Assembly (NCBI GenBank): GCA_031362845.1
Contig: JANLTI010000202.1
Coordinates: 11,420-75,419, forward strand
Direction of reading: 5' to 3'
From: Gemmatimonadaceae bacterium
Lineage (GTDB): Bacteria; Gemmatimonadota; Gemmatimonadetes; Gemmatimonadales; Gemmatimonadaceae
Length of the DNA stretch: 64,000 nucleotides
The notes under the pieces were generated by a model. The model did no database searches and had not been told where the DNA came from. It saw only the letters and a program-made list of their open reading frames with translations. Positions within the stretch are counted from its first letter, which is position 1. Each line of letters begins with the position of its first letter. Shown one piece after another: positions 48,427 to 64,000 of the stretch. The position numbers were made by a program, and so were the translations under genes.

Positions 48427-48427
48427 G

Positions 48428-48465: not shown

Positions 48466-48470
48466 TCATA

Positions 48471-48505: not shown

Positions 48506-48511
48506 CAGTAG

Positions 48512-50527
48512 TCAGGGTACCGGTTTCGGCTTCGGCTCGATCCGCAGCACCCACAGTCCGCTGTTGAAGTCGTTCACGTACGCGAGGCCGTCCTTCGGGT
48601 TCACGACGACGCCCCAGGTCATGGCCGCATTGGGGATTTTTCCCTTTGCGTCCGACGGCATGAACTCGCCGATTTCGCGACCCTGCGCGCGCAGGTCCCC
48701 GCGAAGCTCACCGCTCATGTCGAACGCCCGGAAGCCCGCGTTGTACGCGCCCATGTAGAGCGTGTCGCCGAGCATCCAGACGTTGTGGACGCCGCCGTAC
48801 TCCGGCTCGTACCACGCCACGGGCTTCGGATGCTCGATGTCCTTGACGTCCAGCACCTGCAACCGTCCGTGCGCTCGTGACAGGCCGCCGGAGAACAGCG
48901 TCTGCGCGGCGTCGTTGCCGAACACCTCGTCGGCGATGACGAGGTAGTCCCGATACCGCCACGCGGTATGCGTGCCGCGGATGAAACCCTTGCCTCCTTC
49001 CTTCTCGACGTCACGGTACAGCTGATCGAGGTCGTACTTGTATTGCGACACGATCTTCGGATTGGACGGCGAGCCCCCCTTGATGCCGTTGCCGACGTCA
49101 AGAATGACGATGCCATCGTTCCACCAGGAGCCGTAGAGGAGTCCGTCCTGCACGTCGATGTCGTGCAGCATGCGGCCCGCATCGGCTCGTGGCGTCTTCC
49201 ACGTGGAGACCTGCTTCGGATGGGCCGGATCGTTGATGTCGATGACGTGGACCGCCCCGGTCCCGTCGTTCGTGAGGTAGATGTGCGTGCCGTGCTTCGG
49301 CTGAGTGTGGATGAACGCGGAGTGTACGCCGGAGGTGACGCCGTCCGTGAACTCGCTCAGCGCTTTCGGATGCAATGGGTCGCGCGTATCCGCGATGACG
49401 ATGCCGTTCTTCCGGTCGGCCGCACCCTCGCGGGTGATCACCATGTAGTTGCCGTCGGGCGTCGTCATGATGTCGTTGATGGATCGCGCATTCACGACGA
49501 TCGAGTCCACGACGACCGGGCTGTTCGGGTTGGAAATGTCGATGGCGTAGACACGATCACCACCCATGATCGTGCCCAGGTACGCGACCTTCCCGTTGGG
49601 ATGCAGCCAGACTTCCGACGTGGCGAAGGTGTTGCGGAGCACCTTGCTCACGACCGTGACCGGCCGTCGCACGTCGCGATCTACTGCCGTGACGGTCGCG
49701 TCGGCGGCGTGTCGCCCCACGGACGCGGAGACCTGGTAGACACCCGGCTCGTACGCGACGAAGCTGCCATCGGCATCGAGCAGGCCCTTGCCGGGAGTGA
49801 ACGACCAGCTCGGCGTGATACCCGCGATCTCACGTCCCGCGGCATCGCGCACGACGGCTCGGAAGCGCACGACGTCGCCGGTGCGCACCGACGCCGTCGC
49901 CGGCATCACCTGCACGCTCGCGACGGTCGCCGACAGCACCTCCACGGGAACGCGCGTCGAGACGCCGCCCACCGATGCGCTCACGACAGCGCGTCCGGGG
50001 GCGATCGCCTCGAGACCGCCATCCGCCGCGACGCGCACGACGGAGGGCGCAGAGCTGGCCCACTGCACACGATCCGCACGTCGATCACCGACGTGGGAAA
50101 AGACGGTCGCTCCAAGGCGCATCCGCTGACCGGGCAACATCCGCGCGGGCTGCGGCGCGATGTCGATGCGCGACGCCGGCGCGGGCACCATCGCGACCTC
50201 GAAGCGTTCGATGACCGGCTTGGCGCCGCTTACGAGCGCCACCGCCGTCACGGGTATGGTGCCGATGGCGCCCGAGCGTACGAGACCGGTGGAATCCACG
50301 CTGCCCTCGAAATGGCCCCCCGCACTGACGAACATGATCCGCGCATTGGTGACCGGCGCGCCGGACGCATCGAGCAGTTGCGCGCGCAGGCGCAGCGAAT
50401 CGCCAGCGACGACCGTGCGGATGGCGGGCGTGATGACGAGTCGGCCGGCGGGTTGCGGCAGTTGCGCGCGCGCGAGGGAGAAGGCGCTGAGAAGCGGAAG
50501 GCAGGCGACGTAACGGGAAATGCGCAC
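48512..50527 (-). CDS. exported Big_2 (Ig-like) x about 4 plus LVIVD-repeat beta-propeller protein
   Basis: Start proposed at GTG 50527 (VRISRYVACLPLLSAFSLARAQ signal). Repeated ITP...V...G.S..L.A modules. C-terminal LVIVD-like blades (VYAIDISNPNSP, GIVIADTRDPLHP, AVHVIDINDPAHP, LQVLDVKDIEHP). Confidence 0.74.
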   Translation of the reverse strand: MRISRYVACLPLLSAFSLARAQLPQPAGRLVITPAIRTVVAGDSLRLRAQLLDASGAPVTNARIMFVSAGGHFEGSVDSTGLVRSGAIGTIPVTAVALVSGAKPVIERFEVAMVPAPASRIDIAPQPARMLPGQRMRLGATVFSHVGDRRADRVQWASSAPSVVRVAADGGLEAIAPGRAVVSASVGGVSTRVPVEVLSATVASVQVMPATASVRTGDVVRFRAVVRDAAGREIAGITPSWSFTPGKGLLDADGSFVAYEPGVYQVSASVGRHAADATVTAVDRDVRRPVTVVSKVLRNTFATSEVWLHPNGKVAYLGTIMGGDRVYAIDISNPNSPVVVDSIVVNARSINDIMTTPDGNYMVITREGAADRKNGIVIADTRDPLHPKALSEFTDGVTSGVHSAFIHTQPKHGTHIYLTNDGTGAVHVIDINDPAHPKQVSTWKTPRADAGRMLHDIDVQDGLLYGSWWNDGIVILDVGNGIKGGSPSNPKIVSQYKYDLDQLYRDVEKEGGKGFIRGTHTAWRYRDYLVIADEVFGNDAAQTLFSGGLSRAHGRLQVLDVKDIEHPKPVAWYEPEYGGVHNVWMLGDTLYMGAYNAGFRAFDMSGELRGDLRAQGREIGEFMPSDAKGKIPNAAMTWGVVVNPKDGLAYVNDFNSGLWVLRIEPKPKPVP

Positions 50528-50730
50528 GGGACAGGCTCCTGGAAGTTGGACGGCCGCCGGAAGCTCCGGCGAAGCGCGAGCGCTGTCAACGGCGTGCGCC
50601 GGTGTCGCTCGGGGAGGCGGCACGGCGCGGAGCACGGGTACATTCCAGAAGCGGCGAACGAACGCCACGCCCAGGGATCGCGACGCGGCAACCAGTCCGC
50701 CCGGACGATGAATCGACCCGTCACCCATAC

Positions 50731-51786
50731 ATGAACATGCCAACTCGCTCGTGGACCGGACGCTCGTACGGAACGGCGCTCACCATGCTGCTCCTCGCGA
50801 CGGCGTGTCGGACCGCGTCCCCCACGCCATCGTCGGTCGCCACTGCTCGCGCCGACACCGCGCCCTCTCCTCCGCCGGCGCGGTGGCTCACCATCATCGG
50901 CGAGTACGGACTGGACTCAGCGGACGTCATCGTACTCGAGCGCGGCGGACGGCTCTGGATGCGCACCGCCTCCATCGACACGCCAATCGTGGAACAGTCC
51001 GACGGCGGGTTCGTCACCGCCGATGCGCAGCAGCGCCGTATCACGTTCCGGCGTGGACCCACCGGGCGCATCGTGCAGCTCGAAGTCGACGGCGCCTCGC
51101 TCGCGCGCCGGCAGGTGGGACCCGAGTCGGGCAACCAACTCGTCATCACCCCGGTGCGCCCCCTCGACGAGCTGCGCCGCGAGGCGCTCGCCGCTCGGCC
51201 ACCGACGGAGCGCGGGTCGTTCCTGCCGATGGACCTGGTAGAGCTCACGACGCTCGATCCCACGATCAAGCTCGAGATCCGGTACGCCACGAGCAACAAC
51301 CTGTTCGGCGCGCCATTCTATTCGCAGGCGCGCGCGTTCCTGCAGCGGCCGGCGGCCGAAGCGCTGGTGCGTGTGAGCGCGGCGCTGCGGCCGCGCGGTT
51401 ACGGACTGCTCGTGCACGACGGCTACCGTCCGTGGTCAGTGACGAAGATGTTCTGGGATGCGTCGCCGGAGGAGAAGCACATCTTCGTCGCCAATCCTGC
51501 GCAGGGTTCGAAGCACAACCGCGGCGCGGCGGTGGACCTCACGCTGTACGAACTCGCGACCGGCGCGCCGGTGGAAATGGTGAGCACCTACGACGAGACG
51601 TCGTCGCGCGCGTACCCGGACTATCCGGGCGGAACGTCTCGGCAGCGCTGGCACCGCGCCCTCCTGCGCAGCGCGATGGAGGCGGAGCGATTCGCGGTGT
51701 ACGAGACGGAGTGGTGGCACTTCGACTTCGCCGAGTGGCGGCGGTATCCCATCGGAAATCTGGCGTTCGAGGAGCTGATGAAGTAA
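50731..51786 (+). CDS. D-alanyl-D-alanine dipeptidase (VanX/DdpX, peptidase M15D) lipoprotein with about 150 aa N-terminal extra domain
   Basis: Start at MNMPTRSWTGRSYGTALTMLLLATAC (lipobox). Catalytic-domain motifs RYATSNNLFG, LLVHDGYRPWSV, SKHNRGAAVDLTL, EWWHFDF. Confidence 0.87.
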   Translation: MNMPTRSWTGRSYGTALTMLLLATACRTASPTPSSVATARADTAPSPPPARWLTIIGEYGLDSADVIVLERGGRLWMRTASIDTPIVEQSDGGFVTADAQQRRITFRRGPTGRIVQLEVDGASLARRQVGPESGNQLVITPVRPLDELRREALAARPPTERGSFLPMDLVELTTLDPTIKLEIRYATSNNLFGAPFYSQARAFLQRPAAEALVRVSAALRPRGYGLLVHDGYRPWSVTKMFWDASPEEKHIFVANPAQGSKHNRGAAVDLTLYELATGAPVEMVSTYDETSSRAYPDYPGGTSRQRWHRALLRSAMEAERFAVYETEWWHFDFAEWRRYPIGNLAFEELMK

Positions 51787-51815
51787 TCGCGCTCGGCATC
51801 GTTCCATGGCAGGGC

Positions 51816-51939
51816 GGAGGGAATCCACGTTCAGCGTTTGCCGTTGGGCGTTCACCGATTGGCGTTGTAGGGCGGAGACGCATTGAAACCCGGAACGGTC
51901 CACGCCGAACGGGTAACGCGTCACGTGGATTCCCTCTCC
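51816..51939. repeat. palindromic intergenic element (copy C) with GGAGGGAATCCACGT terminal inverted repeats and CGTT-phased heptad arms
   Basis: Left end ggagggaatccacgt (51816-51830). Right end acgtggattccctctcc (51923-51939). Arms read CGTTTGC CGTTGGG CGTTCAC CGATTGG CGTTGTA, and on the other strand CGTTACC CGTTCGG CGTGGAC CGTTCCG. Confidence 0.85.
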
Positions 51940-51966
51940 CAGCGCTTGACGTTCGCCCACCCGGCC

Positions 51967-53487
51967 TCATCGCCGCGCGCGTACGAACGTGGTGCCGTAG
52001 GCGCGTACCCCGCTGACCGCCCCGGTGCCCGTGGGCACGAAGGTCAAGGTCGTCGGGTCGTCGTTCGGCGTCGGTCGGCTGCGGAACACGTCGTGCTCCC
52101 AGTGATCGAGCATACCGAGATCAGCCTTCTCGAACCGGGCCCGCAGCGTGCCATCCACGAGCGTGATCGCGATGCTCCCATATGCCGAGTCGGTGTATGT
52201 GCCGACGTAGCGGTCGATGGGTAGTGACGCGCGGGTGCCGATGGAGCGGGCGGGCGGAGCTGCCGATGCGCGCCGCGCCGACAGCAGCGTGCGCAGATCG
52301 GTGCTCCAGTCACGCGACGGACCCGCGCCATACAAGTCGAACACCTGATACATGAGCGCGTGCCGGAGCTCGGCATGATCGAGGTTGGCGAGCACGAACA
52401 CCCCGACGCGCTGCTCGGGCAGCAGCCCGATGATCGCGCTCATGCCGTCGATGCTGCCGGTATGCATCCACACCGTCTGCCCGTGATAATCCTGGACGAA
52501 CCAGCCGAGCGCGTAGCTGAAGAAGTGTGGCTGCGCGAGTTCGAGCGCCGGGTACTGGCTGGACGGCACGCGAATCTGCGGCGCGACCAGTTCCGCGAAC
52601 GTGGCCGGCGTGATGAGTCGACTGGTTCCGACACGACCGCTATCGAGCATGAGCCGCATCCACCTGGACATGTCGGACACGCTCGACCACACCGATCCGG
52701 CGGCTGCCACGGCATCCGTGCTGCGAATGGGCACGACACGCACCGTGTCGTGGACCAGGTCGTGTGGACTCGCGACGTCGCTCTTGCCGATGATACCCGC
52801 CACGAGCGGCTCCGTCTCCCGCATGTTGAGCGGGGCGAGCAGTCGCGCGCGGAGAAAGGTCTCCCATGGCATGCCCGAGAGTCGCTCCACCAGCACCCCG
52901 CCGATGGCGTACACGACGTTCTGGTAGTTCCAGGTGGAGCGGAACGAGCTGGTCGGCCGCACGTAGCGCAGTTGCCGCATCATCTGCGCGATGGTGTACT
53001 GATTCTCCCGCACCGTCCAGAACAGGTCAGTGCCCGGCAGCCCCGTGCGATGCGTGAGCAGGTCGCGCACGGTGAGCTCTCGCGTCGCGTAGGGATCGTA
53101 GAGCCGGAACTCCGGCAGGTGATCGATCACCTTGTCGTCCCAGCGCAGCTTGCCCTCGTCCACCAGCATCGCGAGCGCCGCGGCGGTCATCGCCTTGGTC
53201 GTGGAGCCAACGGCGAAGCGCGTGTGCTCGGTGGCGCGCGCCGGCTTGCCGACTTCCGCGACGCCGTAGCCCGTCGCGAACACGAGCGAGTCGCCGCTGA
53301 CGACGGCGATAGCGAGACCCGGCACGCGCCAGTCGCGCGCCGCGCGCTCCACGTAGCGGTCGAAAGCTGGCCAGTCGGGCGCGCGACGTTGTGCCTGTTG
53401 CGCGTTGAGCGAGGAGGCAAGCAGCAGGGCGGCGAGCGCGGTGCGCCTCAGCCTGGAGGGGTTCGCAATGAGTCGTGACGGGTTCAT
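51967..53487 (-). CDS. S12-family serine hydrolase (beta-lactamase fold; D-aminopeptidase/DD-peptidase-like) with C-terminal DUF3471-like domain
   Basis: Start at MNPSRLIANPSRLRRTALAALLLASSLNAQQ (signal). SxxK = FAVGSTTKAMTAAA. YxN-type NYQNVVY. Confidence 0.84.
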   Translation of the reverse strand: MNPSRLIANPSRLRRTALAALLLASSLNAQQAQRRAPDWPAFDRYVERAARDWRVPGLAIAVVSGDSLVFATGYGVAEVGKPARATEHTRFAVGSTTKAMTAAALAMLVDEGKLRWDDKVIDHLPEFRLYDPYATRELTVRDLLTHRTGLPGTDLFWTVRENQYTIAQMMRQLRYVRPTSSFRSTWNYQNVVYAIGGVLVERLSGMPWETFLRARLLAPLNMRETEPLVAGIIGKSDVASPHDLVHDTVRVVPIRSTDAVAAAGSVWSSVSDMSRWMRLMLDSGRVGTSRLITPATFAELVAPQIRVPSSQYPALELAQPHFFSYALGWFVQDYHGQTVWMHTGSIDGMSAIIGLLPEQRVGVFVLANLDHAELRHALMYQVFDLYGAGPSRDWSTDLRTLLSARRASAAPPARSIGTRASLPIDRYVGTYTDSAYGSIAITLVDGTLRARFEKADLGMLDHWEHDVFRSRPTPNDDPTTLTFVPTGTGAVSGVRAYGTTFVRARR

Positions 53488-53534
53488 CCATCCCCGATGG
53501 AAAGTACGACACCGGCAAGTGGACCGCTCCCGCA

Positions 53535-54716
53535 TCACGCCGTCTTCCAGATTGCGGTCAATACCCGCTGAAAATTGCCGCCGAGAATTCCTTCGATCTG
53601 CGCGTCCGTGTATTTCCGACGGATGAGGCCCTCCGTGAGATCGAACATGCGCTTCGGGTGGTCGAGTCCCTCGATGTCGATCTTCTCACGGAAGCCGTAG
53701 CTCCCCTTGTAGCCAGCGCGGAGCTGCTTGTTCGCCTCCGGGGGCATGTCGTCGTAGCCATCGAGGTCGATGTCGCTGCCCACGCCGAGAAACTCGGGGC
53801 CCACCAGCCTGGTCACGTGGTCGAAGTGGTCGAGCGCGTGTTCGATGGTGGTCGGCTCGTGATCACGCACGAACATTCGCACGCCAGTGATTCCCATCAC
53901 GCCGCCCGACTTCGCCATCGCGCGAATGGCTTCATCGGTCTTGACGCGCGGGTGACCCGGTACGAGCGCCCGGCAATTGGAGTGCGTGATGAGCACGGGT
54001 CGCTTCGAGGCTTCGAACGCGTCGAGCGTGGTGCGATCGCCGCAGTGAGACACGTCCACGGCCATCCCCACCGTGTTCATGCGGTCAACGATCGCCAGCC
54101 CGAAGTCGCTCAGTCCCTCGTCGCGACGCTCGGTGGCGCCATTGCCGATCAGGTTCCGCCCGTTGTAGGTCAGTTGTGACACCCGCTGCCCCTGACCGTA
54201 GAAGAAGTCCACGTCCTCCGGGCGACGGAAGTGACCGGAATTCTGAAGGCCGAGCAGCACACCTACCTTCCGCGACCGCTTGGCGCGCGCGAAATCTGCC
54301 GCGCTGTCCACGCGCATGAGCCGCTCGTCGTTGCCGGCAATGAATCCGTTCCAGCCGGCGAACCACACGAGCGCCGTCTGATACGGGTCGAGCCCGCCGA
54401 GTCCAATGGCGGGATGAAAGACGGAGATCCCCGAGTCCACGAACTTCTGGAAGTGGGCGTCGGTGAAGCTCTCCGCGTTCACCGTCCACTTCGCCTGCAA
54501 CGGAAAGTCGAGCGTGAAGGGCGCGAGCATGTCCACCACCGTCGCGCGTTGCATCAGCGCGATGGTGCGGGCCGAGTACTCCGCTCCGCGGAACAGTGTG
54601 TGGCGGCCGAGGTTGATCATCGCGGCAGCAACCGTCGGAGCGGCAACGAGAGCGGCACAGGCCGCAGCAGCAGTTTTCAGCAATGAGCGGCGGGAGACGT
54701 CAGTCGGCAAGGACAT
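53535..54716 (-). CDS. membrane (renal-type) dipeptidase, peptidase M19, Tat-exported
   Basis: Tat motif SRRSLLKTAAAACAALVAAP. Motifs DVSHCGD, LITHSNCRAL, HPRVKTDEAI, GVGSDIDLDG. Confidence 0.9.
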   Translation of the reverse strand: MSLPTDVSRRSLLKTAAAACAALVAAPTVAAAMINLGRHTLFRGAEYSARTIALMQRATVVDMLAPFTLDFPLQAKWTVNAESFTDAHFQKFVDSGISVFHPAIGLGGLDPYQTALVWFAGWNGFIAGNDERLMRVDSAADFARAKRSRKVGVLLGLQNSGHFRRPEDVDFFYGQGQRVSQLTYNGRNLIGNGATERRDEGLSDFGLAIVDRMNTVGMAVDVSHCGDRTTLDAFEASKRPVLITHSNCRALVPGHPRVKTDEAIRAMAKSGGVMGITGVRMFVRDHEPTTIEHALDHFDHVTRLVGPEFLGVGSDIDLDGYDDMPPEANKQLRAGYKGSYGFREKIDIEGLDHPKRMFDLTEGLIRRKYTDAQIEGILGGNFQRVLTAIWKTA

Positions 54717-54767
54717 TTGAGGGCTCAGAGAGTTGAGTGAGGGTGCAACCTCCGACTACGGGCTGCC

Positions 54768-54883
54768 GGGATCCACGTGACGTGTTTCCCGTTTAGCGTC
54801 CAACGTTCACCGTTCCACTGCATTCGCCGCCGTGACACGCACCACGGGCAGCGCCGAACGGGAAACGCGTTACCTGGATTTCC
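54768..54883. repeat. palindromic intergenic element (copy D) with GGGATCCACGTGACG / CGTTACCTGGATTTCC ends
   Basis: Left gggatccacgtgacgtgtttcccgtttagcg. Right, reverse-complemented, ggaaatccaggtaacgcgtttcccgttcggcg. The interior is phased every 7 nt by CGT (cgtttag cgtccaa cgttcac cgttcca). Confidence 0.85.
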
Positions 54884-54923
54884 GTTATCTCGCAACTGAG
54901 CAATGAAGTCCCTCGCGACTGTG

Positions 54924-56537
54924 CTACGGCGTTCGGCTTGCGCTCGCCATCGGCGGCCGCCGACGGAACGTGGCTGGCCCGGCCAGATCGATCTGCACTT
55001 CGTCCACCGTGGCGTTGGCGCTGAGCCGGAACTGGACGGGAATGGGGCCGAGCACCGGCGTGCCGAAACGCGTACGAAATGTGTCGAAGTGCCAGTGCTC
55101 GAGCGCGCCGTTCCAGTTGGGTCCGAACGACAGCAGCAGCTTGCCTGCCGAGTCGCGCACGGTGACGTCGCCGAGCAGGCTGTCGCTGTAGACACCGGCG
55201 TACTTGTCCAGCGGGAGTGATGGCTTCGTGTTCGGCACGCGAGACGCCTCCATCTTCTTCAGCGCTTCGCGGCCCCTCGCCCGTGCCGCCTCGCTGCGCG
55301 CGAATGCCTTGGCACTCCAGTCCTCCGGCGTCACGCCAAGGTGCAGATCGAATGCGCGGTTCATCAGCGTCGTCGGCATTCCGGAGCCGTTCATGTTGGA
55401 CAGGATCACGATCCCCATCCGTTCCTCGGGGATCATGCCGACCAGCGCCGTCATGCCGTCCACGTTGCCGCCGTGCTGCACCACGAGCTTTCCGCGGTAG
55501 TCCTGGAGGAACCAGCCCAGCCCATAGGCCTGGAGATGCGTGTACGGATTGCTCCTGCGCGCACCCGTATCGATCGGGATGACGATGTGCGGCGTCTGCA
55601 TCTCGTCGATCATGCGCTCGCTGATGAGCCGCTTGCCGCCGATCGAACCGCGCGCGAGCTGTAGCCGCACCCATTGCGCCATGTCGAGCGCAGTCGAGTT
55701 GATGGAGCCGGCCGGGCCCGCGTTGTCGATATTCCGCCAGTCCACGGCGCGTACCACCCCATCCACTTCGGCATGCGGCGTGGCGAGGTTCGGTCCGCCG
55801 GCGATCTGGCGAATGGACGTCGTGCTCGACGTCATGCCGAGTGGCACGAGCAGGCGATCGCGCACGAAGTCGTCCCATGTCGTATTCGCCATGTGGGCGA
55901 CGATCTGGCCCGCCGTGATGTACATGATGTTCTGATAGCCGAACTGCGAGCGGAAGCTCCACGTCGGCTGGAGGTAGCGCACGCGGCGCACGATCTCGTC
56001 GCGGTCATAGCCGGAGCCGTACCAGACCATCTCCCCGCGCGCGAGTCCGCTGCGGTGGCTGAGGAGATCGCGCACCGTCAGCTCGCGCGACGCATACGGA
56101 TCGGCGAGCTGGAAGCCGGGGAAGTAGAGCGAGGCGCGCCCGTCCAGCGACAGCTTCTTCTCGTCGGCGAGCATCGCGACCGCCGCCGCGGTGAACGCCT
56201 TGGATGACGAGCCGATGGCGAACACCGTGCGCTCATCGACCGCCTGGGTAGTGCCCATATGCCGGACGCCATAGCCCTTGGCGAAAATCACCGAGTCGTT
56301 GCGCACGATGGCGATGGCAGCGCCCGGTACCTTCCACGTCGCGAGCGCCTGATTGACGTACGCGTCCCACCCGGGATACGGCTCCCGTGACAACGACTGC
56401 TGCGCCGGCATCCGTGGCGCGGCGCCGGCGAGCGCGACGCCTGAGGCGCAGGCGATAATGGTGGCGCCGCGGCGCCAGGAGCGTGCAGTGCCATGCGACG
56501 AGCGCATCGAGCGCGGGCGATGCATCATTGGAGACAT
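54924..56537 (-). CDS. S12-family serine hydrolase (beta-lactamase fold), paralog of 51967..53487
   Basis: Signal-like N-terminus. SxxK = FAIGSSSKAFTAAA. GYQNIMY. Same C-terminal domain architecture as the paralog. Confidence 0.84.
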   Translation of the reverse strand: MSPMMHRPRSMRSSHGTARSWRRGATIIACASGVALAGAAPRMPAQQSLSREPYPGWDAYVNQALATWKVPGAAIAIVRNDSVIFAKGYGVRHMGTTQAVDERTVFAIGSSSKAFTAAAVAMLADEKKLSLDGRASLYFPGFQLADPYASRELTVRDLLSHRSGLARGEMVWYGSGYDRDEIVRRVRYLQPTWSFRSQFGYQNIMYITAGQIVAHMANTTWDDFVRDRLLVPLGMTSSTTSIRQIAGGPNLATPHAEVDGVVRAVDWRNIDNAGPAGSINSTALDMAQWVRLQLARGSIGGKRLISERMIDEMQTPHIVIPIDTGARRSNPYTHLQAYGLGWFLQDYRGKLVVQHGGNVDGMTALVGMIPEERMGIVILSNMNGSGMPTTLMNRAFDLHLGVTPEDWSAKAFARSEAARARGREALKKMEASRVPNTKPSLPLDKYAGVYSDSLLGDVTVRDSAGKLLLSFGPNWNGALEHWHFDTFRTRFGTPVLGPIPVQFRLSANATVDEVQIDLAGPATFRRRPPMASASRTP

Positions 56538-56637: not shown

Positions 56638-57972
56638 TCAACTTCCGCCGGCGATGGTCGGATTGTTGATGCGTTCGACGTCCGGCAACGGGAAGCAGGT
56701 CTGCGTTCCGTAGACCCCTCCGTACTGGTAGGCCGCGCCCGCGGCCGGCGTGAACGCGATGCCGTAGCGCCGCATGTCGCCGAGCCGGTGCCCTTCCATG
56801 AACAGTTCGCGACGGCGCTCTTCGATGATCTGCGCGATGAGGTCGGCCGCGGTGGCTCCCACCGGACGAGCGTAGGACGGCACGCCGGCCGTGCGCGCAC
56901 GCGCCCGGTTGATTGCGGCCTCCGCCTCCGCGAGGTTGCCGGTGAGGGCGGCATTCTCGGCGATGATGAGCTGGGCTTCCGCGTAGCTCGCAATTCGGAT
57001 CGGCGAGGTAACGGTGGCGTGCTTGGCCGGGATGAACAGCCGCGAGCCGGTGGCGGTGCCGTTGCGATTTAGGTCCGTCACGATGACGCGCGGGTCCTGC
57101 GTGGTACCACCGGGCGCGAGCACATTGCGGAACGATGGATCGACCGTGCTGAACGAACTCTGCGAGATCGTGATGAACACGGTGTTCTGGCGTCGCGAGT
57201 TGACGGCGTCGGGTGAATTGTTGAGGACGAAGGTCGCCGGGATCAGCGCCGCGTCGGCCGCCGCGGCCGCCAAGTTCGACCCGCCGCCAAGGTCGAGCAG
57301 CACGCGCGCGCGACCGAGTCGCGCCAGATTGAGCGTGGTGACGTCGTTCGCCGTCGTCGCCGCGGCGATGGCCTTTGTGAACCGGGTCACGGCCTCGGCG
57401 AACAGCGCGGGTGAATTCATCTCGGGCCCGAGGTTGATCGCGGCGCTGCACATGCCCTCGCCGAGCAGTGTCAGGCTGTAGCCGGCGTACGCGTACGACT
57501 GCCCAATCAGCTTCGAGCGGTTCGGCACCTCGGCGTCGGTCCACCCCTCGAGCTTGGCCGCCGCAGTGTCAGCCGTCGCGCGCGCCACGGAGAGCGGAGT
57601 GTAGATGCCGGGTTGCTGGCTCGAGCTCGGTGTGGGCGACGCGCAAGTGTTGGTGCCGTAAGTGGCGTTGGTGTTCACGCGGCGCGCGTCGTAATCGAAG
57701 TTCGCCAGCGCCGAGATGCCGACGGTTACCTCATCGGCGAACAGACCGCTACCGACCACGTACCGGCTGAAGGCGCACTCGAAGTCACCGATCGCGCCGT
57801 TCACGAGCAGTGGCGCGTTCGTCGGCACGTAAAGGGTCTCGACAGAGAGCGTTCCGGGATTCTCCTGCTTGAGACTCGTGATTTCGCTGCATGCCGTTGC
57901 CATCATTGCGAGCATACTCGCGGCGAGCGCCATGCGCCGGCCGGAGACCGATTCATTCAGTTGGTTTCGCAT
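56638..57972 (-). CDS. susD: RagB/SusD-family outer-membrane nutrient-binding lipoprotein
   Basis: Lipobox LAMMATAC. C-terminal signature IIEERRRELFMEGHRLGDMRRYG. It lies 3 nt downstream of a SusC-type gene. Confidence 0.87.
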   Translation of the reverse strand: MRNQLNESVSGRRMALAASMLAMMATACSEITSLKQENPGTLSVETLYVPTNAPLLVNGAIGDFECAFSRYVVGSGLFADEVTVGISALANFDYDARRVNTNATYGTNTCASPTPSSSQQPGIYTPLSVARATADTAAAKLEGWTDAEVPNRSKLIGQSYAYAGYSLTLLGEGMCSAAINLGPEMNSPALFAEAVTRFTKAIAAATTANDVTTLNLARLGRARVLLDLGGGSNLAAAAADAALIPATFVLNNSPDAVNSRRQNTVFITISQSSFSTVDPSFRNVLAPGGTTQDPRVIVTDLNRNGTATGSRLFIPAKHATVTSPIRIASYAEAQLIIAENAALTGNLAEAEAAINRARARTAGVPSYARPVGATAADLIAQIIEERRRELFMEGHRLGDMRRYGIAFTPAAGAAYQYGGVYGTQTCFPLPDVERINNPTIAGGS

Positions 57973-57975
57973 GGC

Positions 57976-60900
57976 TCAGAAGCTCAGGTTGACGGTCGCC
58001 AGCAGGCGGGTGAGCGGAGGCACGAGCCCCTGATTGCCGATGGCGGATGAGGTCGCGACGTTGTTGGTGTTGCCCTCGGGATCGAGGCCCGTGAAGTTCG
58101 TCCACGTGTGCAGCTCGCGGCCCGCGATCGTGACGGACGCCGCCGAGAATCCGCGGATGTACCGCGTCGGCACCGTGACCGTGGCCGACAGCTCGCGCAG
58201 CTTGGCGAACGAGCCGTCTTCGTAGTACTGGTCGGTGATGCCCAGCCCCGCGGCGCTGCCGACATGCTCGGCCAGGTACGTGGGGTCGTACTCGAGCGGG
58301 TAGTAATTGGAGCGGCACAGGTTGGCGCCCGCGGCACCCTGACAGCGAATGGCGTCGTTCGTGTTGTACGCCCGGTGGCCGCGCTTGAAGTCCACCAGTC
58401 CGTACAGCCGCAGGTTCTTGCCGATATAAAAGGTGTTGCCCAACGACCCGGTGGTGCGCGGTGTCGGCGTGCCGATGAACTGGAACGGTGCCGTGGCGCA
58501 GGCCACCGGCGCGGCGCCAGCGGCGCCCTCGCACAGCACGTTGATAGCGAGGTTCGTCACCGGATCACGATCCGCCGACACCACGCGCCGCGTGTAGATG
58601 CCGCCGATCGGACGACCGACGATGTTGCTCTGACCGGCGCTCAGCACCACGCCGCCGATGCCGCCGAGATCCTTGATCTCATCGCGGTTGGTGGCAAGGT
58701 TGCCGACGATCTCCCACGAGAACCCCTGGCGTGTGATCGCCTGGAGCGTGGCCAGCAGCTCGACGCCGGAATTGTCGACGCGGCCGAGGTTGGCGAACTG
58801 GCTGCCGGCGAAGCCGCTGGAGGGTGCGATGGGCTGACTGATGATGACGTCCTGCGTTCGCTTGCTGAACCAGGTGAAGTCCAGCCCGAGGCGCCCGAAC
58901 AGCTGGCCGTCGAAGCCCAGCTCCGTCTCCTTTCCGCGTTCCGGCTTGAGGTCGGGATTGCCGATGGTGTTCGGGGTGACGGCGCTCGTACCGCCCGGAC
59001 CCTGCGCGGGAGAGTACGTGCGCAGCGCGCTGAACGTCGCGGGCTGCCGCCCGGACTCACCGTACGCGGCGCGGAGCTTGAGACTGTTCACGTAGGCGTT
59101 CGCCGGCCAGAACGACTCCTCGTTCACCACCCACGCCGCGCTGACTTTCGGGTAGGTGATCCACTTGAAGTCCTCGCCGAAGGCGCTGTTGTTGTCCACT
59201 CGCAACGCGGCGGTGAGGAAGAGCCGATCGCCCCAGCCGAACTGCTGCTGTCCATACGCGCCGATGGTGGTGTTGATGGTCTGCGTCTGCGTCGCGGTCG
59301 AGGGGTTCGAGACGGCACTCACCGTCTCCACACCGAGGCCAGGGAACCCGGTGCCGCCGAGGAAGCTGGAGTTGAGCTCCGTGCGGAAGAACTGTCCACC
59401 GAGCGAGGTGGTGGAGCGCAGCGAACGGCTGATGTCGAACTTCAATGAACCCGCATAGTCCGCCGAGGCGATGGTGTTGCGGCGCAGCGTCTGGCCGATG
59501 CTGCCGGCGCCGGCGACGGGGCCGATGAACGCGACGAGATCCGGCGTCGCGAATCGCTCGATGGCCCGGCTGTCGTCAGCGGTGAGGTCGATGCCGGCGA
59601 CGAGCCGCTGGCTGAACCAGGCGGTGGGACGATGGTTGAGGGTGGTACTGCCCGTGAAGCGGTGTACGCCCTGCGCATTGTCGTACAGGGTCTGCGGCAC
59701 TTCGGGCGGAAAGTTCGGATAGTGCCCGCGCGCAGCGGCAAACAGGAGCGAGTGACCGGCCACGGCGCCGAGCAATGCTGACGCGCCCACATCCGCCCCG
59801 AGGTGGCCGGAAAGGTTGACGTAGTTGAGGCTCGTGCCGAAGTCCACGGTCTCGCTCGGCGCCACGCCGAGATTCGCGTGAAAGGTGAACTGGCGGAGTG
59901 AGTTGTTCGGCTCGACGCCGAGGTCGTTCTGGTAGGACCCGGACGCGTAGTAGCGCACCACGTCGCGCCCGCCAGACAGCGAGCCGCTGTATTGGCGCGT
60001 CTGTCCCCGCCGGAACAGCGGCGTCCCGCGCGCCTCCTCGACCTCCACCCCATTCCACGTCACGATCTCGCCCGTGGTGGCGTTGCGCGCATAATTCGTG
60101 GGCACGCGGCCGGCCGCATCGCGGAACCAGATCAGTCCGTCCTGCACCTGCAGCTTCACCGCGGGCTTGCCCGTGATGGCGCCCTTCTTCGTGATGATCT
60201 GGATCACGCCGTTCGCCGCCTCCGTACCGTAGATGGTGGCGGCGGCGGGGCCCTTGATGATCTCGATGCTCTCGATGTCTTCCGGGTTGATGTCGTTCAG
60301 TCGCCCTGACACGTTCGACGCCTGACCACCCAGACGGCCGGGAGGGGCGACCGGCCCGGCCGTCGTCGCATTGTTGACGCGCACCCCGTCCACGTAGAGC
60401 AGCGGCGAGTTGTCCAACCCGATGCTGCTGCGGCCACGGATCTGGATGCTTGGCCCTGCCCCGAGCCGACCGGTGCCGGGTGCGATGATGACACCCGGCG
60501 CGCGAGCGCCGATGAGACTACTCAGGCTCTGCGACGCGGACTTCTGCGTGGCTTCGACGGCATTGATCGTCGTCACCGCATTGCCGATCGAGCGGCGCAC
60601 TTCGCCGCCCGCCGTTCCCGTCACTACCACTTCATCGAGCGAAGTGGCAGACGCAGTCAGTTCGATCGTTGCGTTCGTAGTGCCGGCGCTCGCCACGACG
60701 ATGGATTGGCGGACGGACGCGAAGCCGAGACGCCGCACGCTCAACACATGAGTTCCACTCGGCACACCGAGGATGCGGAAGCGTCCATCATCGGCGGACA
60801 CCGCGCCGAGGCGCGTACCGTCCACCTGAATGGTGGCGCCGGCGAGTGGCCGGTTGCTGCGCGCCTCGGTCACCTGCCCCGTCACCGTCGCGACCGCCTG

Positions 60901-61011
60901 TTGGGCGACTACGGGTTGCGCGGAGATGAGCAGCCAGAGGAGTGCGGCTACTGCTCCCGCCACGATCCGGCACGACGGCGTCGCAGCCCGACATGGATCT
61001 GTTCGCATCAT
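57976..61011 (-). CDS. susC: SusC/RagA-family TonB-dependent outer-membrane transporter
   Basis: 1011 aa. CarboxypepD_reg domain (VTGQVTEARSNRPLAGATIQVDG...). Plug (IESIEIIKGPAAATIYGTEAANGVIQIITKKG). C-terminal beta-barrel ending LATVNLSF. Confidence 0.92.
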   Translation of the reverse strand: MMRTDPCRAATPSCRIVAGAVAALLWLLISAQPVVAQQAVATVTGQVTEARSNRPLAGATIQVDGTRLGAVSADDGRFRILGVPSGTHVLSVRRLGFASVRQSIVVASAGTTNATIELTASATSLDEVVVTGTAGGEVRRSIGNAVTTINAVEATQKSASQSLSSLIGARAPGVIIAPGTGRLGAGPSIQIRGRSSIGLDNSPLLYVDGVRVNNATTAGPVAPPGRLGGQASNVSGRLNDINPEDIESIEIIKGPAAATIYGTEAANGVIQIITKKGAITGKPAVKLQVQDGLIWFRDAAGRVPTNYARNATTGEIVTWNGVEVEEARGTPLFRRGQTRQYSGSLSGGRDVVRYYASGSYQNDLGVEPNNSLRQFTFHANLGVAPSETVDFGTSLNYVNLSGHLGADVGASALLGAVAGHSLLFAAARGHYPNFPPEVPQTLYDNAQGVHRFTGSTTLNHRPTAWFSQRLVAGIDLTADDSRAIERFATPDLVAFIGPVAGAGSIGQTLRRNTIASADYAGSLKFDISRSLRSTTSLGGQFFRTELNSSFLGGTGFPGLGVETVSAVSNPSTATQTQTINTTIGAYGQQQFGWGDRLFLTAALRVDNNSAFGEDFKWITYPKVSAAWVVNEESFWPANAYVNSLKLRAAYGESGRQPATFSALRTYSPAQGPGGTSAVTPNTIGNPDLKPERGKETELGFDGQLFGRLGLDFTWFSKRTQDVIISQPIAPSSGFAGSQFANLGRVDNSGVELLATLQAITRQGFSWEIVGNLATNRDEIKDLGGIGGVVLSAGQSNIVGRPIGGIYTRRVVSADRDPVTNLAINVLCEGAAGAAPVACATAPFQFIGTPTPRTTGSLGNTFYIGKNLRLYGLVDFKRGHRAYNTNDAIRCQGAAGANLCRSNYYPLEYDPTYLAEHVGSAAGLGITDQYYEDGSFAKLRELSATVTVPTRYIRGFSAASVTIAGRELHTWTNFTGLDPEGNTNNVATSSAIGNQGLVPPLTRLLATVNLSF

Positions 61012-61094
61012 GAGCTCCTGGAGTAGACCACGTTTAGGTCACCTTCGATCATGTCTGGGGCAGGTCGCGTTGGACGGTCCGATGCGAAGCAGGC

Positions 61095-61336
61095 GGAATC
61101 CACGTGACGCGTTTCCCGTTTGGCGTTTCCCGTTTGGCGTTTTTGCGATTGGCGTTTCCCAATCGGCGTTTCCCGTTTGGCGCTTCCCGTTTGGCGTTTC
61201 CCGTTTGGCGTTTCCCGTTTGGCGTTTCCCGTTTGGCGTTTCCCGTTTGGCGTTTCCCGTTTGGCGTTCTCACCGCGGTCACGCCCTGAAACGCGAAACG
61301 GAGCACGGGCAACGGGTCACTCGTCACGTGGATTCC
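61095..61336. repeat. palindromic intergenic element (copy E) with GGAATCCACGTGACG terminal inverted repeats and an expanded internal tandem array
   Basis: Left ggaatccacgtgacg (61095-61109). Right cgtcacgtggattcc (61322-61336). The right arm, reverse-complemented, reads AGTGACC CGTTGCC CGTGCTC CGTTTCG. Confidence 0.9.
61110..61264. repeat. 14-bp tandem repeat (CGTTTCCCGTTTGG) x about 11, made of two alternating heptads
   Basis: Counted directly: 8 perfect units, one 1-mismatch unit (cgcttcccgtttgg) and two degenerate units (cgtttttgcgattgg, cgtttcccaatcgg). Confidence 0.95.
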
Positions 61337-63101
61337 GGTTGCCCGCGATCGAACCTTGTCGTTCCTGCCACCCATGTCCGCGCACGATCCGCCCTGGCTT
61401 CGCGCCCGTGTGCTTGCCGTCGCGAACCACGTCGATGCCATTCACGAAGACGTCGCGGACGCCGGTCGACAGCTGGTGCGGCCGCTCGTAGGTGCTGTGC
61501 TCCTGGATCGTGGCCGGATCGAACACCACGACGTCGGCGTACAGGCCGGGACGCAGCAGCCCGCGGTCGCCGATGAGCAGCCGCTCGGCGACAGCGCCGG
61601 TCATCTTCCGCACGGCATCCTCGAGCGGGATGATGCGCTCGTCGCGCACGTACTTGCCGAGGATCCGCGTGTAGGTGCCGTACGCGCGGGGATGGGTCAT
61701 CCCGCGTGCGCTGTCGGGGTCCTGGCCGCTCGCATCGGTGCCGATCTTCATCCACGGCTGCTTGAGTGCCAGCCGCACGTTGTCCTCGTTCATGAGGAAG
61801 AAGATCGTGCCGATGCCGCCCGGCTCGGTGAGCACGAGATCCATCAGCGTCTCGAGCCAGTCCTTGCCGGTGCCGGCCGCCACCTCCGACAGCCGCTTTC
61901 CGGACCAGCGCTGGTTCTGCGGCGCTCGGAGCGTGGTGAGTAGCACGCCCTGCGGCGTCCCCTGCTCGCAGAGGCTTTCCCAGTAGCTCGTCGGGCGCGC
62001 GAACTCTTCCCGGATCTGCGCGCGAATCGCCGGGTCCGCGAGACGCTGCTTGAGTTGGCCGTCCGCGTCGAAGCGCGGCGGAAAGCAGGCGGCGAGCCCG
62101 GTGCCGCCCGCGGTGTACGGATAGATGTTTGCCTGCACGTCCAGTCCGGCCGCGCGCGCGGAGTCGATCTTGGCAATCATCGCCGGCATCTTCGGCCAGT
62201 TGGCCGTGCCCGCTGCCTTCAGATGATAGATCTCCACCGGCACACCGCCCTCACGACCGATGCGGAGCGCCTCGTCCATCCCCTCGAGGACCTTGTCCGC
62301 CTCCGAACGCATGTGCGTGATGTACAGCCCACCGTACGGCGCCATCGCCTTCACGATCTCGATCAATTCTTCGGTGCTTGCGTAGTTTCCGGGCGGATAG
62401 ATGAGGGCGGTGCCGAGTCCGAATGCGCCGTCTTCCATGGCGCGGCGCAGCGCGCCACGCATCGAGTCGAGCGCGGCAGCATTCGCCGCGCCCATCTTCA
62501 GCCCCATGCCGTACTCGCGCAGTGTGCTGGCACCGACGAACGATCCGACGTTCGGCGACGTGCCGTTCGCCTGCATCGCACGCAGCCATGTGTCGAAACC
62601 TCGCGGGCCCATGAAGCGACGCGCCGCCGCGTTCTCGGGCCGGTCGCCCGCGCGACCACCGATCGTGAGCTCGCTGATGGGCGCGGCGGTGTACGCCTCG
62701 CCCAGGATTTCGGTGGTGACGCCCTGGGTCAGCTTGCTCACGCTACGACCGTCACCATTCAGGAATCCACCGCCGCCACTCTGGATGTCGATGAAGCCGG
62801 GCGCGACGACCATTCCCGTCGCGTCGATGCGCCGTCGCGTCGGCCGGCCAGCCAGTGAACCACGGCGACCCACCGCGGCAATGCGGTCGCCTCGAATCGC
62901 GACGTCGCCGTAGAACCAGGGGTTTCCGGTTCCGTCGACGATGCGCCCGTTCGTGATGACGACGTCGTAGCTGTCTGACGCCGCGGGAAGGCGCACATCC
63001 GGACCGGCCGGCCGCGCGAGCGATCCGGTGCAGGCGCTTCCGACCAACGCGCTGATGGCGCTGAGGAGCGCTCTCATTCGTCGTGACGTGAGGGCGCTCA
63101 T
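61317..63101 (-). CDS. N-acyl-D-amino-acid deacylase (D-aminoacylase)-like amidohydrolase, lipoprotein
   Basis: Lipobox SALVGSAC. D-aminoacylase-like N-terminal beta domain (VVITNGRIVDGTGNPWFYGDVAIRGDRIAAVG). Motifs ITHMRSE, VEIYHLKAAG, KIGTDASG. The last 6 codons and the stop lie inside repeat copy E. Confidence 0.78.
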   Translation of the reverse strand: MSALTSRRMRALLSAISALVGSACTGSLARPAGPDVRLPAASDSYDVVITNGRIVDGTGNPWFYGDVAIRGDRIAAVGRRGSLAGRPTRRRIDATGMVVAPGFIDIQSGGGGFLNGDGRSVSKLTQGVTTEILGEAYTAAPISELTIGGRAGDRPENAAARRFMGPRGFDTWLRAMQANGTSPNVGSFVGASTLREYGMGLKMGAANAAALDSMRGALRRAMEDGAFGLGTALIYPPGNYASTEELIEIVKAMAPYGGLYITHMRSEADKVLEGMDEALRIGREGGVPVEIYHLKAAGTANWPKMPAMIAKIDSARAAGLDVQANIYPYTAGGTGLAACFPPRFDADGQLKQRLADPAIRAQIREEFARPTSYWESLCEQGTPQGVLLTTLRAPQNQRWSGKRLSEVAAGTGKDWLETLMDLVLTEPGGIGTIFFLMNEDNVRLALKQPWMKIGTDASGQDPDSARGMTHPRAYGTYTRILGKYVRDERIIPLEDAVRKMTGAVAERLLIGDRGLLRPGLYADVVVFDPATIQEHSTYERPHQLSTGVRDVFVNGIDVVRDGKHTGAKPGRIVRGHGWQERQGSIAGNRNPRDE

Positions 63102-64000
63102 GTGGCCGCCACCACGGTGCGCTGCGTCGAGACGTCCTCTGTGCGCACGGTGATCGAGTCCAGGAAGTCGCGGTCCACCATCACGCCGAGTCCAGGCCGG
63201 TCGATCGGCACGCGCACCATTCCTTCATCGTCCATTGTCCACTCCGGAGTAATGACGTCGCGGTGCCAGTATCGTGCGCTCGGGCTCAGGTCACCCGGCA
63301 AGGAGAAGTTCGGGAGCGACGCGAGCGCCACGTTGTACGCCCGGCCGATGCCGCTCTCGAGCATGCCGCCGCACCAGACGGGGATCTGCGCGCTGGCACA
63401 GACGTCGTGGATGGCCTTCGACGCACTGAATCCGCCAACGCGGCCCGGCTTGATGTTCACGATCCGTCCGCTCCCGAGCGCGATCATGTCTTCCGCGCGG
63501 TCCACGCTCGTGATGGATTCGTCGAGACAGATCGGTGTCTTCAGGCGGCGCTGGAGGGCAGCGTGCCGCACGAGGTCATCGTCGCCGAGCGGTTGCTCCA
63601 GCATGATCAGCCCGAATTCGTCGAGTCGCCCGAGCTGATCGCTGTCGCGGAGCGTGTACGCCGAGTTCGCGTCCGCCATCAGTCCCATGTCTGCGCCGAG
63701 CGCGTCCCGCACCGCGCGCACGTACTCGACATCCTGCCCGGGACGGATCTTCAGCTTGATCTTGCGGTAGCCAGCGGCGACCGCGGCCTGTGCGCGCGCG
63801 ACGAGGGCGGCGGGCTCGCTCTGCAGGCCGAGCGAGATGCCGGTGGGCACGCGGTCGCGAGTGCCGCCAAGGAGCGATGACAGCGACACGCCGGCCGATT
63901 CGGCGGCGAGGCCCCAACAGCCCATCTCGAGCGCGGCCTTCGCCATGTTGTGGCCGCGGATGTGTTCGTCCAGGAGCGGATGCACCTCCGCCGGACCCGC
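63098..64000 (-). CDS. enolase-superfamily racemase/epimerase (N-succinylamino-acid racemase / o-succinylbenzoate synthase-like), N-terminus beyond the window
   Basis: KIKLKI (KxK), DANSAY, MLEQPL, CLDESI, NIKPGRVGG, in the order typical of the MLE/OSBS-NSAR subgroup. The frame is open to base 64000. ATGA-type 4-nt overlap with the D-aminoacylase start. Confidence 0.8.
   Translation of the reverse strand, partial: AGPAEVHPLLDEHIRGHNMAKAALEMGCWGLAAESAGVSLSSLLGGTRDRVPTGISLGLQSEPAALVARAQAAVAAGYRKIKLKIRPGQDVEYVRAVRDALGADMGLMADANSAYTLRDSDQLGRLDEFGLIMLEQPLGDDDLVRHAALQRRLKTPICLDESITSVDRAEDMIALGSGRIVNIKPGRVGGFSASKAIHDVCASAQIPVWCGGMLESGIGRAYNVALASLPNFSLPGDLSPSARYWHRDVITPEWTMDDEGMVRVPIDRPGLGVMVDRDFLDSITVRTEDVSTQRTVVAAT

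Follow-up and report, generated by a model that had tools for sequence, protein, structure and literature searches.

What does a soil-type bacterium of the family Gemmatimonadaceae import through an outer-membrane system of the SusC/SusD type (SusCD), if the genes next to it encode no enzymes acting on glycans? The question is raised by a locus at positions 48512 to 64000 of a 64,000-nucleotide stretch of contig JANLTI010000202.1, which is called the window in the following. According to open reading frame (ORF) calling and translation, the locus comprises nine genes, eight of which lie on the minus strand. An initial annotation, made from the DNA letters alone, had interpreted them as a system for the import and dismantling of peptides containing D-amino acids, with muropeptides as candidate substrates. 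The positions and strands it had given for the nine genes were confirmed by ORF calling, and profile and PDB searches confirmed its assignments at family level.

Our own answer, which is drawn from sequence comparisons, is a graded one. It is probable that the locus serves the utilisation of peptides or amino-acid derivatives. That it is aimed at peptides with D-residues is an evenly balanced proposition in our judgement, and we give the same middling weight to the reading favoured overall, namely a Gemmatimonadaceae nutrient locus for peptides that most likely contain D-amino acids. Among natural substrates, stem peptides from the peptidoglycan of dead bacteria are the likeliest candidates, but as the main substrate they appear doubtful. 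Further peptides with D-residues, for example lipopeptides or peptides of non-ribosomal origin, are possible substrates.

The importer and its conserved gene neighbourhood

The core of the locus consists of a SusC/RagA-type TonB-dependent transporter (57976..61011, minus strand) and a SusD/RagB-family lipoprotein lid of 444 amino acids (56638..57972, minus strand), with a gap of 3 nt between the susC stop and the susD start. SusC scores 438.3 bits with TIGR04056 (cutoff 368.25) and contains the CarboxypepD_reg, Plug and barrel domains, while the short signature model TIGR04057 is just missed (44.7 against a cutoff of 46.2). SusD matches PF07980 with 52 bits (cutoff 23.1), and its lipobox cysteine, Cys28, is invariant across 26 homologues. 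Both proteins therefore carry the features by which SusC/RagA transporters and SusD/RagB lipoproteins are recognised. SusC possesses no STN signalling domain, which fits a one-component type of regulation. The homologues of SusD form more than 120 clusters at a sequence identity of at least 71%, and the named ones originate nearly all from metagenome-assembled genomes of Gemmatimonadaceae or other Gemmatimonadota. The AlphaFold2 (AF2) model of SusD is of low confidence (pLDDT 60.5). Its top 35 Foldseek matches in the PDB are all SusD-like and RagB is among the best of them (E 1.6e-5), but glycan-binding SusD proteins match equally well. Since the model is poor and the two kinds of SusD tie, no ligand was derived from it.

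No glycoside hydrolase or polysaccharide lyase domain was detected by Pfam in 48512-64000, nor in the 10 largest unlabelled ORFs neighbouring the locus in its relatives. A polysaccharide utilisation locus (PUL) combines SusCD with co-located carbohydrate-active enzymes (CAZymes), and the locus is therefore not a PUL in this sense. Among the 10 unlabelled ORFs, Pfam recognised Tricorn-like S41 proteases, a DadA-like protein, an acyl-CoA dehydrogenase, AtuA, a MacB/FtsX-type permease, a TPR-repeat protein, a putative esterase and a glutamine synthetase.

Evidence for a functional unit comes from the conservation of the gene content. A tblastn search covered all non-redundant loci, 28 in number, that measure 8 kb or more and whose SusD is at least 50% identical to that of the window. 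S12 hydrolases are present in 21/28 loci and GNAT-like proteins in 18/28, followed by Amidohydro_3 proteins, GntR regulators and permeases (16/28 each), NSAR (15/28), M23-like (13/28), S15 and S9 peptidases (9/28 each), M19 (7/28), M20 (6/28) and Tricorn-like proteins (5/28). VanX (3/28) and Big_2 proteins (2/28) are the rarest. Scanning metagenomes with the SusD alignment yielded 80 further loci. A scan of contigs with a single SusD yielded four true orthologous loci together with 32 unrelated Bacteroidota SusD genes, which had matched via a conserved C-terminal motif and were reused as a control. When 26 of these unrelated Bacteroidota SusD loci were searched with the same panel and thresholds, none of the panel families was found except for a single permease. 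The resulting Fisher p-values range from 2e-9 for S12 (0/26 in the control) to 1.5e-2 for M20, with the sensitivity in the control being somewhat lowered by the divergence across phyla. The clustering is far above background, and it fades below approximately 50% SusD identity. The description of the region as a SusCD-led locus without glycan enzymes thus holds for a conserved locus and not only for one contig. The initial annotation had proposed a synteny search in Gemmatimonadota and Bacteroidota; such synteny is seen in the related loci, where S12, Amidohydro_3 and NSAR genes are common and M19 is less frequent; in the Bacteroidota controls none of these occurs.

Between the lineages the gene order is reshuffled and the content is kept. 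Five close relatives (L042, L006, L044, L045 and L008, with 80-88% SusD identity) share the block with the window in full, each gene having its counterpart. A second group of relatives, called type B here (L002, L005, L007 and L050), possesses a run of 12 genes on the same strand that overlap or are separated by tiny gaps. Its order is GntR, divergent from GNAT-like - NSAR - M20 - permease - Amidohydro_3 - SusC - SusD, then in some cases M23-like and a second Amidohydro_3, then S12 and CocE/NonD (S15), and in some cases more S12 and S9 genes. Two further loci were found when the GNAT-like protein served as the starting point in place of SusD. In L128, a run of GNAT, permease, Amidohydro_3, SusC and SusD genes is divergent from the GntR regulator, and the locus also encodes a fusion of S12 and VanX. 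L127 combines GntR, GNAT, NSAR, M20, permease and S15 with a gene for a Tricorn-like protease and three of the S12/DUF3471 type, and there is no SusCD within 10 kb.

A probable D-to-L conversion module, permease and regulator

At the very end of the window (63098..64000, minus strand) lies a gene for an enolase-superfamily racemase of the NSAR/OSBS subfamily. Only its C-terminal 300 residues are encoded here, since the gene continues past the window end, and its stop codon overlaps the start of the following amidohydrolase gene as ATGA. The partial protein scores 262.8 bits and a full-length orthologue 309 bits with TIGR01928 (cutoff 200.65), and NAAAR structures are matched closely (1r0m, E 4e-85; 1sja, E 1e-82). 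The motifs of the subfamily, KxK (as KIKLK), DANSAY, EQP, DES and NIKPGR with the equivalents of K263 and R266, are all present, the last one within the longer string NIKPGRVGG that had been quoted by the initial annotation. The genome context favours an NSAR over an OSBS activity. A reading of the gene as an L-Ala-D/L-Glu epimerase (AEE) was rejected, since the NSAR models score far above the AEE models.

For the flank beyond base 64000 we relied on the relatives with 80-88% SusD identity. Upstream of NSAR these carry a GNAT-like gene of approximately 285-303 codons, a divergent regulator gene of the GntR/FCD type and a gene for an amino-acid permease of the APC family. The divergent regulator is located just beyond the NSAR and GNAT-like genes in every relative with enough upstream sequence. 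The absence of a regulator from the initial annotation is hence an artefact of the window edge, because the gene in question lies past it.

The GNAT-like protein P0131 was taken as the copy of the window genome, since a single contig of 80,697 bp encodes both this protein and the exact SusD (P0001). Searches of Pfam, NCBIfam and PDB sequences returned only matches below threshold, which centre on the string RNLGVGR with an invariant Arg and two invariant Gly residues, and the assignment was decided by the fold search. The AF2 model of P0131 (pLDDT 86) matches the GNAT N-acetyltransferases PA4866, YncA, phosphinothricin acetyltransferases and RimI with E-values of about 7e-9 and a probability of 1.0. 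In JGI records, members of this family (P0121-P0240, approximately 270-300 amino acids) appear in part as "predicted GNAT superfamily acetyltransferase" and in part as "chorismate synthase". In view of the GNAT fold predicted by the model, the latter name looks like a mis-annotation.

GNAT, NSAR and M20 genes are part of one operon in the lineages of L002, L005, L007 and L127, whereas the locus of the window lineage contains GNAT and NSAR only. None of the three proteins has a signal peptide, while signals of the Sec, Tat or lipoprotein type are present on all hydrolases of the locus, and in the operon order the permease is found between the exported and the cytoplasmic gene groups. The export pattern proposed by the initial annotation is therefore correct for the hydrolases. 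For the racemase, its N-terminus being outside the window, the lack of a signal is visible in the orthologues only (L042). Genes that could not be seen from the window strengthen the D-amino-acid theme, namely those for GNAT, M20, the APC permease, a DadA-like protein and M23-like proteins in the relatives. The DadA-like gene (L085:12520-13767, also in L009, L086 and L088) encodes a putative FAD-dependent D-amino-acid dehydrogenase, for which NF001933 is by far the best match, with 231 bits against a cutoff of 383. In L085, L009 and L086 it is situated between the M23-like and the second Amidohydro_3 gene.

The exported hydrolases

The most constant partners of the importer are represented in the window by two exported serine hydrolases with the S12 beta-lactamase fold and a C-terminal DUF3471 domain, S12a (54924..56537, minus strand) and S12b (51967..53538, minus strand). 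They score 222 and 225 bits with PF00144 and 55 and 54 bits with PF11954, respectively, and are 39% identical to each other. In the relatives, it is the S12b clade that most often adjoins SusD. Both proteins exhibit the three motifs by which MEROPS defines family S12 (SxxK, YxN and H/K-x-G). These are SSSK110, YQN201 and HGG355 in S12a, and STTK112, YQN205 and HTG359 in S12b, the first motif of each being the one already quoted by the initial annotation; KTG occurs in neither. The nearest solved structure to S12a is that of Pab87 (2qmi, E 8.6e-31). The next PDB matches are Flp, ClbP, alkaline D-peptidase and D-amino-acid amidase, but also esterases. D-stereospecificity of S12a and S12b is thus suggested by their nearest neighbours only. 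A profile of the DUF3471 domain, built from 25 domains and covering the C-terminal 130 amino acids, matched only an unannotated PDB fragment of 102 residues (4whi) and revealed no link to the lipocalin domain of Pab87. The last 30 or so positions of this profile give weak matches to the C-terminal domain of TonB (E 0.02-0.04), all from one family and not independent of each other, which are probably noise.

The third motif is also what speaks against a locus for resistance to, or detoxification of, beta-lactams, carbapenems or glycopeptides. The family names might suggest such an island (beta-lactamase-fold, renal-dipeptidase-like, VanX), and both S12 proteins match class C beta-lactamases weakly. 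However, these matches reach only 86-89 bits with a cutoff of 415, and the HxG motif (H-G-G or H-T-G) in place of KTG led us to reject S12a and S12b as class C enzymes. No vanHA genes are present, the genes conserved with the block include those for racemisation and for an amino-acid permease, and a TonB-driven import of an antibiotic would be the opposite of resistance. We therefore regard this explanation as extremely improbable.

Convergent with the S12b gene, a VanX/DdpX-type lipoprotein with an extra N-terminal domain of approximately 165 amino acids is encoded (50734..51786, plus strand). It scores 117.5 bits with PF01427 (cutoff 27, E 8.6e-34) and has the motifs of the M15D family, DGYRPW with the Arg, SKHNRGAAVD and EWWH with the His/Asp/His and Glu residues. 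It stays below the equivalog cutoffs of DdpX (NF007557, the best NCBIfam match, 138.8 against 176) and of VanX (88 against 320). In L128 (4509-6923, minus strand), Pfam and BLASTP reveal a fusion protein of 804 amino acids with an S12 domain at residues 48-371 and a VanX-type domain at residues 617-794. Over its C-terminal 310 residues, the fusion protein shares 55% identity with the whole mature VanX-like protein encoded in the window (residues 46-348), the extra N-terminal domain included. The fusion ties VanX functionally to the S12 hydrolases; apart from it, VanX is confined to the closest relatives. The same limited distribution applies to the ninth gene (48512..50527, minus strand). It encodes an exported protein with a Big_2 domain (PF02368, E 1.4e-10) and a choice-of-anchor-B/LVIVD beta-propeller (TIGR04312, 54 bits, below the cutoff), its likely start is the GTG at 50527 rather than at 50743, and it is found only in the closest relatives L006 and L042. 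It is an uncertain member of the system.

Two more genes of L128 may be mentioned here. One (18920-20879, plus strand) runs off the locus and encodes a second fusion product, of approximately 1510 amino acids, with Tricorn-like S41 and beta-lactamase-fold domains, according to precomputed Pfam hits only. The other (1642-3296, plus strand) is a gamma-glutamyltranspeptidase gene split into two ORFs about 6 kb from GntR; it was seen in this single locus, and its product could act on gamma-D-glutamyl bonds.

The S12 proteins and the conversion module could also be seen as directed against non-ribosomal peptides and lipopeptides, such as antibiotics, surfactants or peptide siderophores, in place of cell-wall peptides. 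The S12 proteins would then be peptidases specific for D-residues, with the amidohydrolases stripping N-acyl groups. Hydrolysis of gramicidin is reported for D-stereospecific peptidases of the S12 family (PMC9541196), and NSAR, D-aminoacylase-like and M20 enzymes all act on N-acyl amino acids. However, the VanX-type and M23-like peptidases suggest cell-wall chemistry. The block resembles a nutrient locus in its connection with a permease and catabolic modules, and it contains no efflux or immunity gene. Such targets are quite improbable in our view.

The remaining two hydrolases belong to the amidohydrolase superfamily, and both deviate from their namesakes. The Amidohydro_3 protein (61317..63101, minus strand), with a lipoprotein-type signal (LVGSAC), is clearly related to the D-aminoacylase 1m7j, its nearest structure (E 3.7e-85). 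In D-aminoacylases of the type of Alcaligenes faecalis DA1, the metals are bound by Cys96, His220 and His250 at the beta site and by His67, His69 and Asp366 at the alpha site. Three of these six ligands are gone in the protein from the window, where Gln stands at the position of H67, Gly at that of H69 and Ala at that of C96, while H220, H250 and D366 are kept. One residue before the lost Cys, at position 95, an invariant Glu is found. The altered pattern occurs in 16/16 SusCD-linked homologues with readable columns and in both linked clades.

The M19-like protein (53535..54716, minus strand) carries a Tat signal, scores 245 bits with PF01244 and belongs to a divergent subfamily, the nearest PDB entry being the uncharacterised 2i5g. 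Compared to the PDB sequences 3id7 and 9h0b, it has a Gln in place of the bridging Glu (GLQNSGH). According to an alignment with the human DPEP1 sequence, it also lacks the N-terminal HxD (VVDMLAP). Both His residues and the catalytic Asp are kept. The window protein and its six orthologues share these ligand changes with 2i5g. The binuclear zinc site of the membrane or renal dipeptidases (DPEP1, Sco3058) is thus not conserved.

Both enzymes have therefore undergone a parallel change, in that ligands of the alpha site (HxD or HxH) were lost and the bridging or anchoring residue was altered, and this state is kept across orthologues. They probably remain metallohydrolases. The two specificities assumed by the initial annotation, that of a D-aminoacylase and that of an M19 dipeptidase for L-Xaa-D-Xaa, do not survive this comparison. 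The placement into subfamilies that it had proposed as a check confirms the family features of NSAR, S12 and the VanX-type protein and fails at the metal ligands for the other two.

With the two supposedly D-specific metallohydrolases too divergent to call, a general locus for oligopeptides or protein necromass has to be considered, similar to RagAB, in which L-peptides are the main substrate and the D-amino-acid genes handle a minor fraction. RagAB demonstrates that ordinary oligopeptides can be imported by a SusCD-type system, and proteases for L-peptides (S9, CocE/NonD, Tricorn-like) are encoded in sister loci. On the other hand, the most constant partners (S12/DUF3471, the GNAT-like protein and NSAR) are not general peptidases, and the D-to-L module, the DadA-like genes and VanX, including its fusion with S12, would make little sense for purely L-configured peptides. 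We consider this explanation unlikely, but worth keeping in mind.

The family names would finally allow for a housekeeping role in recycling or remodelling the cell's own wall, since S12 (AmpH-like by weak NCBIfam matches), VanX-type and M23-like proteins as well as a nearby MepK-like M15 protein belong to families of wall maintenance. However, a cell needs neither a TonB-dependent importer in the outer membrane nor a catabolic regulator of the GntR type for its own wall, and the canonical recycling genes are absent. This makes such a role very improbable. The M15 gene (45842-47095, minus strand) encodes a protein of 417 amino acids, called M15A by the initial annotation, with weak matches to Peptidase_M15_2/DUF882 and MepK-like models (30.6 and 25 bits). 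It is set apart from the block by SodA and DedA genes, and since the same neighbours are kept in L042, it is probably a housekeeping gene and not a member of the locus.

The rest of the window, which has a G+C content of approximately 66%, contains unrelated housekeeping genes, among them those for an H+-pyrophosphatase and an ammonium transporter, besides SodA and DedA. A bacteriophytochrome histidine kinase with PAS_2-GAF-PHY-HisKA-HATPase architecture is encoded at 2117-4567 (plus strand), and a block resembling alternative complex III includes a pair at 26746-31514 (minus strand), consisting of a molybdopterin/4Fe-4S fusion protein and an NrfD protein. Two proteins with names from carbohydrate metabolism are encoded outside the locus, with housekeeping genes in between. 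These are a heparinase II/III-like protein (36195-39098, minus strand) about 10 kb away and a GH38-type alpha-mannosidase-like protein without signal peptide (42414-45056, minus strand) at a distance of 3.5 kb. Promoter and terminator consensus scans and Rfam gave nothing usable in 45000-64000. The spacer between the amidohydrolase and susC genes (61012-61316) harbours a 14-nt tandem repeat at 61109-61268 with the minus-strand unit AACGCCAAACGGGA, present in 11.4 copies with a 90% match. The arms of a perfect 15-nt inverted repeat, GGAATCCACGTGACG and CGTCACGTGGATTCC, enclose the array, and the first of them still belongs to the amidohydrolase ORF, at its 3' end. The repeat unit is unique within the window, and the closest relatives have the same flanks with spacers of 20-61 bp and no repeat array.

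A proposed route and its relation to known systems

From homology, predicted compartment and synteny, the following route may be proposed. The SusC barrel and the SusD lid would import oligopeptides across the outer membrane, powered by TonB. In the periplasm these would be broken down by hydrolases that tolerate or prefer D-residues, that is S12a, S12b, the VanX-type protein and the divergent M19-like and D-aminoacylase-like proteins, while in sister lineages M23-like, CocE/NonD (S15), S9 and Tricorn-like peptidases may act instead. The APC-family permease, whose gene should lie just beyond the window end in the window lineage, would carry the released amino acids over the inner membrane. In the cytoplasm, the GNAT-fold acyltransferase would N-acylate D-amino acids and NSAR would racemise the resulting N-acyl derivatives. 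The L-amino acid could then be freed by an M20 N-acyl-L-amino-acid hydrolase, which is encoded in the operon of sister lineages and not in that of the window lineage. Oxidation of the DadA type might be an alternative in some lineages, and the divergent GntR/FCD regulator presumably controls the block. The idea of peptidoglycan as the source is based on VanX, its fusion with S12, the frequency of M23-like genes and the precedent of Pab87.

Several observations weigh against a nutrient locus for D-residue peptides, or against parts of this reading. The specificities of D-aminoacylase and M19 dipeptidase are not transferable to proteins that lack key metal ligands. S12a and S12b are only about 25-30% identical to D-specific members of their family, and S12 also includes esterases and L-acting enzymes. 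NSAR/OSBS enzymes can be bifunctional, a role as MenC is possible, and the M20 gene is not part of the locus in the window lineage. The S9, CocE/NonD and Tricorn-like peptidases of the sister loci are ordinary L-peptide enzymes, the gene set of L127 indicates that the importer is not obligatory, and the poor SusD model is silent on the ligand. The peptidoglycan part in particular suffers from the scarcity of VanX outside the closest relatives, and no recycling genes of the MpaA, LdcA, AmpD or NagZ type were seen at the loci. For the sugar part of a muropeptide no amidase, NagZ or lysozyme was found, so that nothing speaks for a use of the glycan moiety of the muropeptides named by the initial annotation.

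The initial annotation had been aware of no characterised SusCD-based system of this kind. Peptide import by RagAB, however, has been characterised, and a scheme of S12 peptidase, D-aminoacylase and transporter was already proposed for Pab87. Known are, accordingly, SusCD-type peptide import, the GNAT-NSAR-M20 pathway and the scavenging proposal for Pab87. In the papers searched we found no description of SusCD physically coupled to these modules, of any characterised SusCD system from Gemmatimonadota, of the subfamilies with altered metal sites, or of DUF3471, and none of these papers connects Gemmatimonas with SusC or SusD. Tentatively, and with clearly less than even odds in our judgement, the locus may be proposed as the first dedicated D-peptide utilisation locus, with a complete route from the outer membrane to the cytoplasm by which Gemmatimonadota could use D-peptides from bacterial necromass. 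It would employ two undescribed amidohydrolase-superfamily subfamilies with new stereo- or bond specificities, namely the Amidohydro_3 clade with a Glu for the Cys ligand and no HxH, and the M19 clade without alpha-site ligands.

Such a locus would be of interest beyond the single genome. D-amino acids and peptidoglycan remnants constitute a sizeable share of the organic nitrogen in soil and sea that is turned over slowly, and the organisms and genes that reclaim it are poorly known. Gemmatimonadota are abundant in soil and their ecology is largely unexplained, and the locus offers a concrete gene set that can be tested. It links a TonB-dependent importer, putatively D-residue-tolerant hydrolases, an irreversible D-to-L conversion module and a local regulator, and with it the known range of SusCD systems is widened past glycans as substrates and past Bacteroidota as carriers. 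The two divergent metallohydrolase subfamilies and the GNAT family without a database model are targets for enzymology.

Among the known systems, RagAB of Porphyromonas gingivalis, a SusCD-type oligopeptide importer (10.1101/755678), shares with the locus the SusC-like TonB-dependent barrel and the SusD-like lipoprotein lid, a preference for peptides instead of glycans, as proposed here, and the absence of CAZymes. It differs in that it belongs to another phylum, shows no specific sequence kinship beyond the family, is not linked to S12, VanX or NSAR, and takes up L-peptides generated by gingipains.

The closest solved relative of S12a, the CubicO S12 peptidase Pab87 of Pyrococcus abyssi, is D-stereospecific and cuts the C-terminal D-Ala from peptidoglycan pentapeptides; its gene adjoins those of a D-aminoacylase and a peptide ABC transporter, and its authors proposed a scavenging of D-peptides from bacterial debris (PMC2651629). 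As in S12a, the S12 domain of Pab87 is followed by a C-terminal domain, in its case a beta-domain. Pab87, however, is an archaeal, cytoplasmic and self-compartmentalising octamer, its genomic partner is an ABC transporter and not SusCD, and there is no NSAR/GNAT module.

For GNAT, NSAR and M20, a pathway for the conversion of D- to L-amino acids encoded in one operon has been described for Geobacillus kaustophilus (Sakai et al. 2006, cited in PMC12006748). The same trio heads the type-B operons. Unlike in G. kaustophilus, the trio here shares its locus with exported hydrolases, a permease and an importer of the outer membrane. GNAT, for which there is no matching Pfam or NCBIfam model, is extended at its C-terminus by a domain of approximately 100 amino acids, and M20 is missing from the locus of the window lineage.

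The ddp operon of Escherichia coli is said, in work of Lessard and Walsh from 1999, to combine the D-Ala-D-Ala dipeptidase DdpX with a dipeptide ABC importer. It resembles the locus in the coupling of a VanX-type dipeptidase to an importer and in the possible use of cell-wall D-Ala-D-Ala as a nutrient. DdpX is cytoplasmic and the ABC importer resides in the inner membrane, whereas the protein from the window is a predicted exported lipoprotein with an extra N-terminal domain that scores below the DdpX cutoff.

With the PULs of Bacteroidota, finally, the locus has in common the tandem of SusC and SusD as its core, the exported hydrolases that follow and the single local regulator. It differs from them by lacking glycoside hydrolases, lyases, a hybrid two-component system (HTCS), an ECF/anti-sigma pair and the STN domain. 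Its regulator is of the GntR/FCD type instead, and its cargo consists of peptide and amide enzymes.

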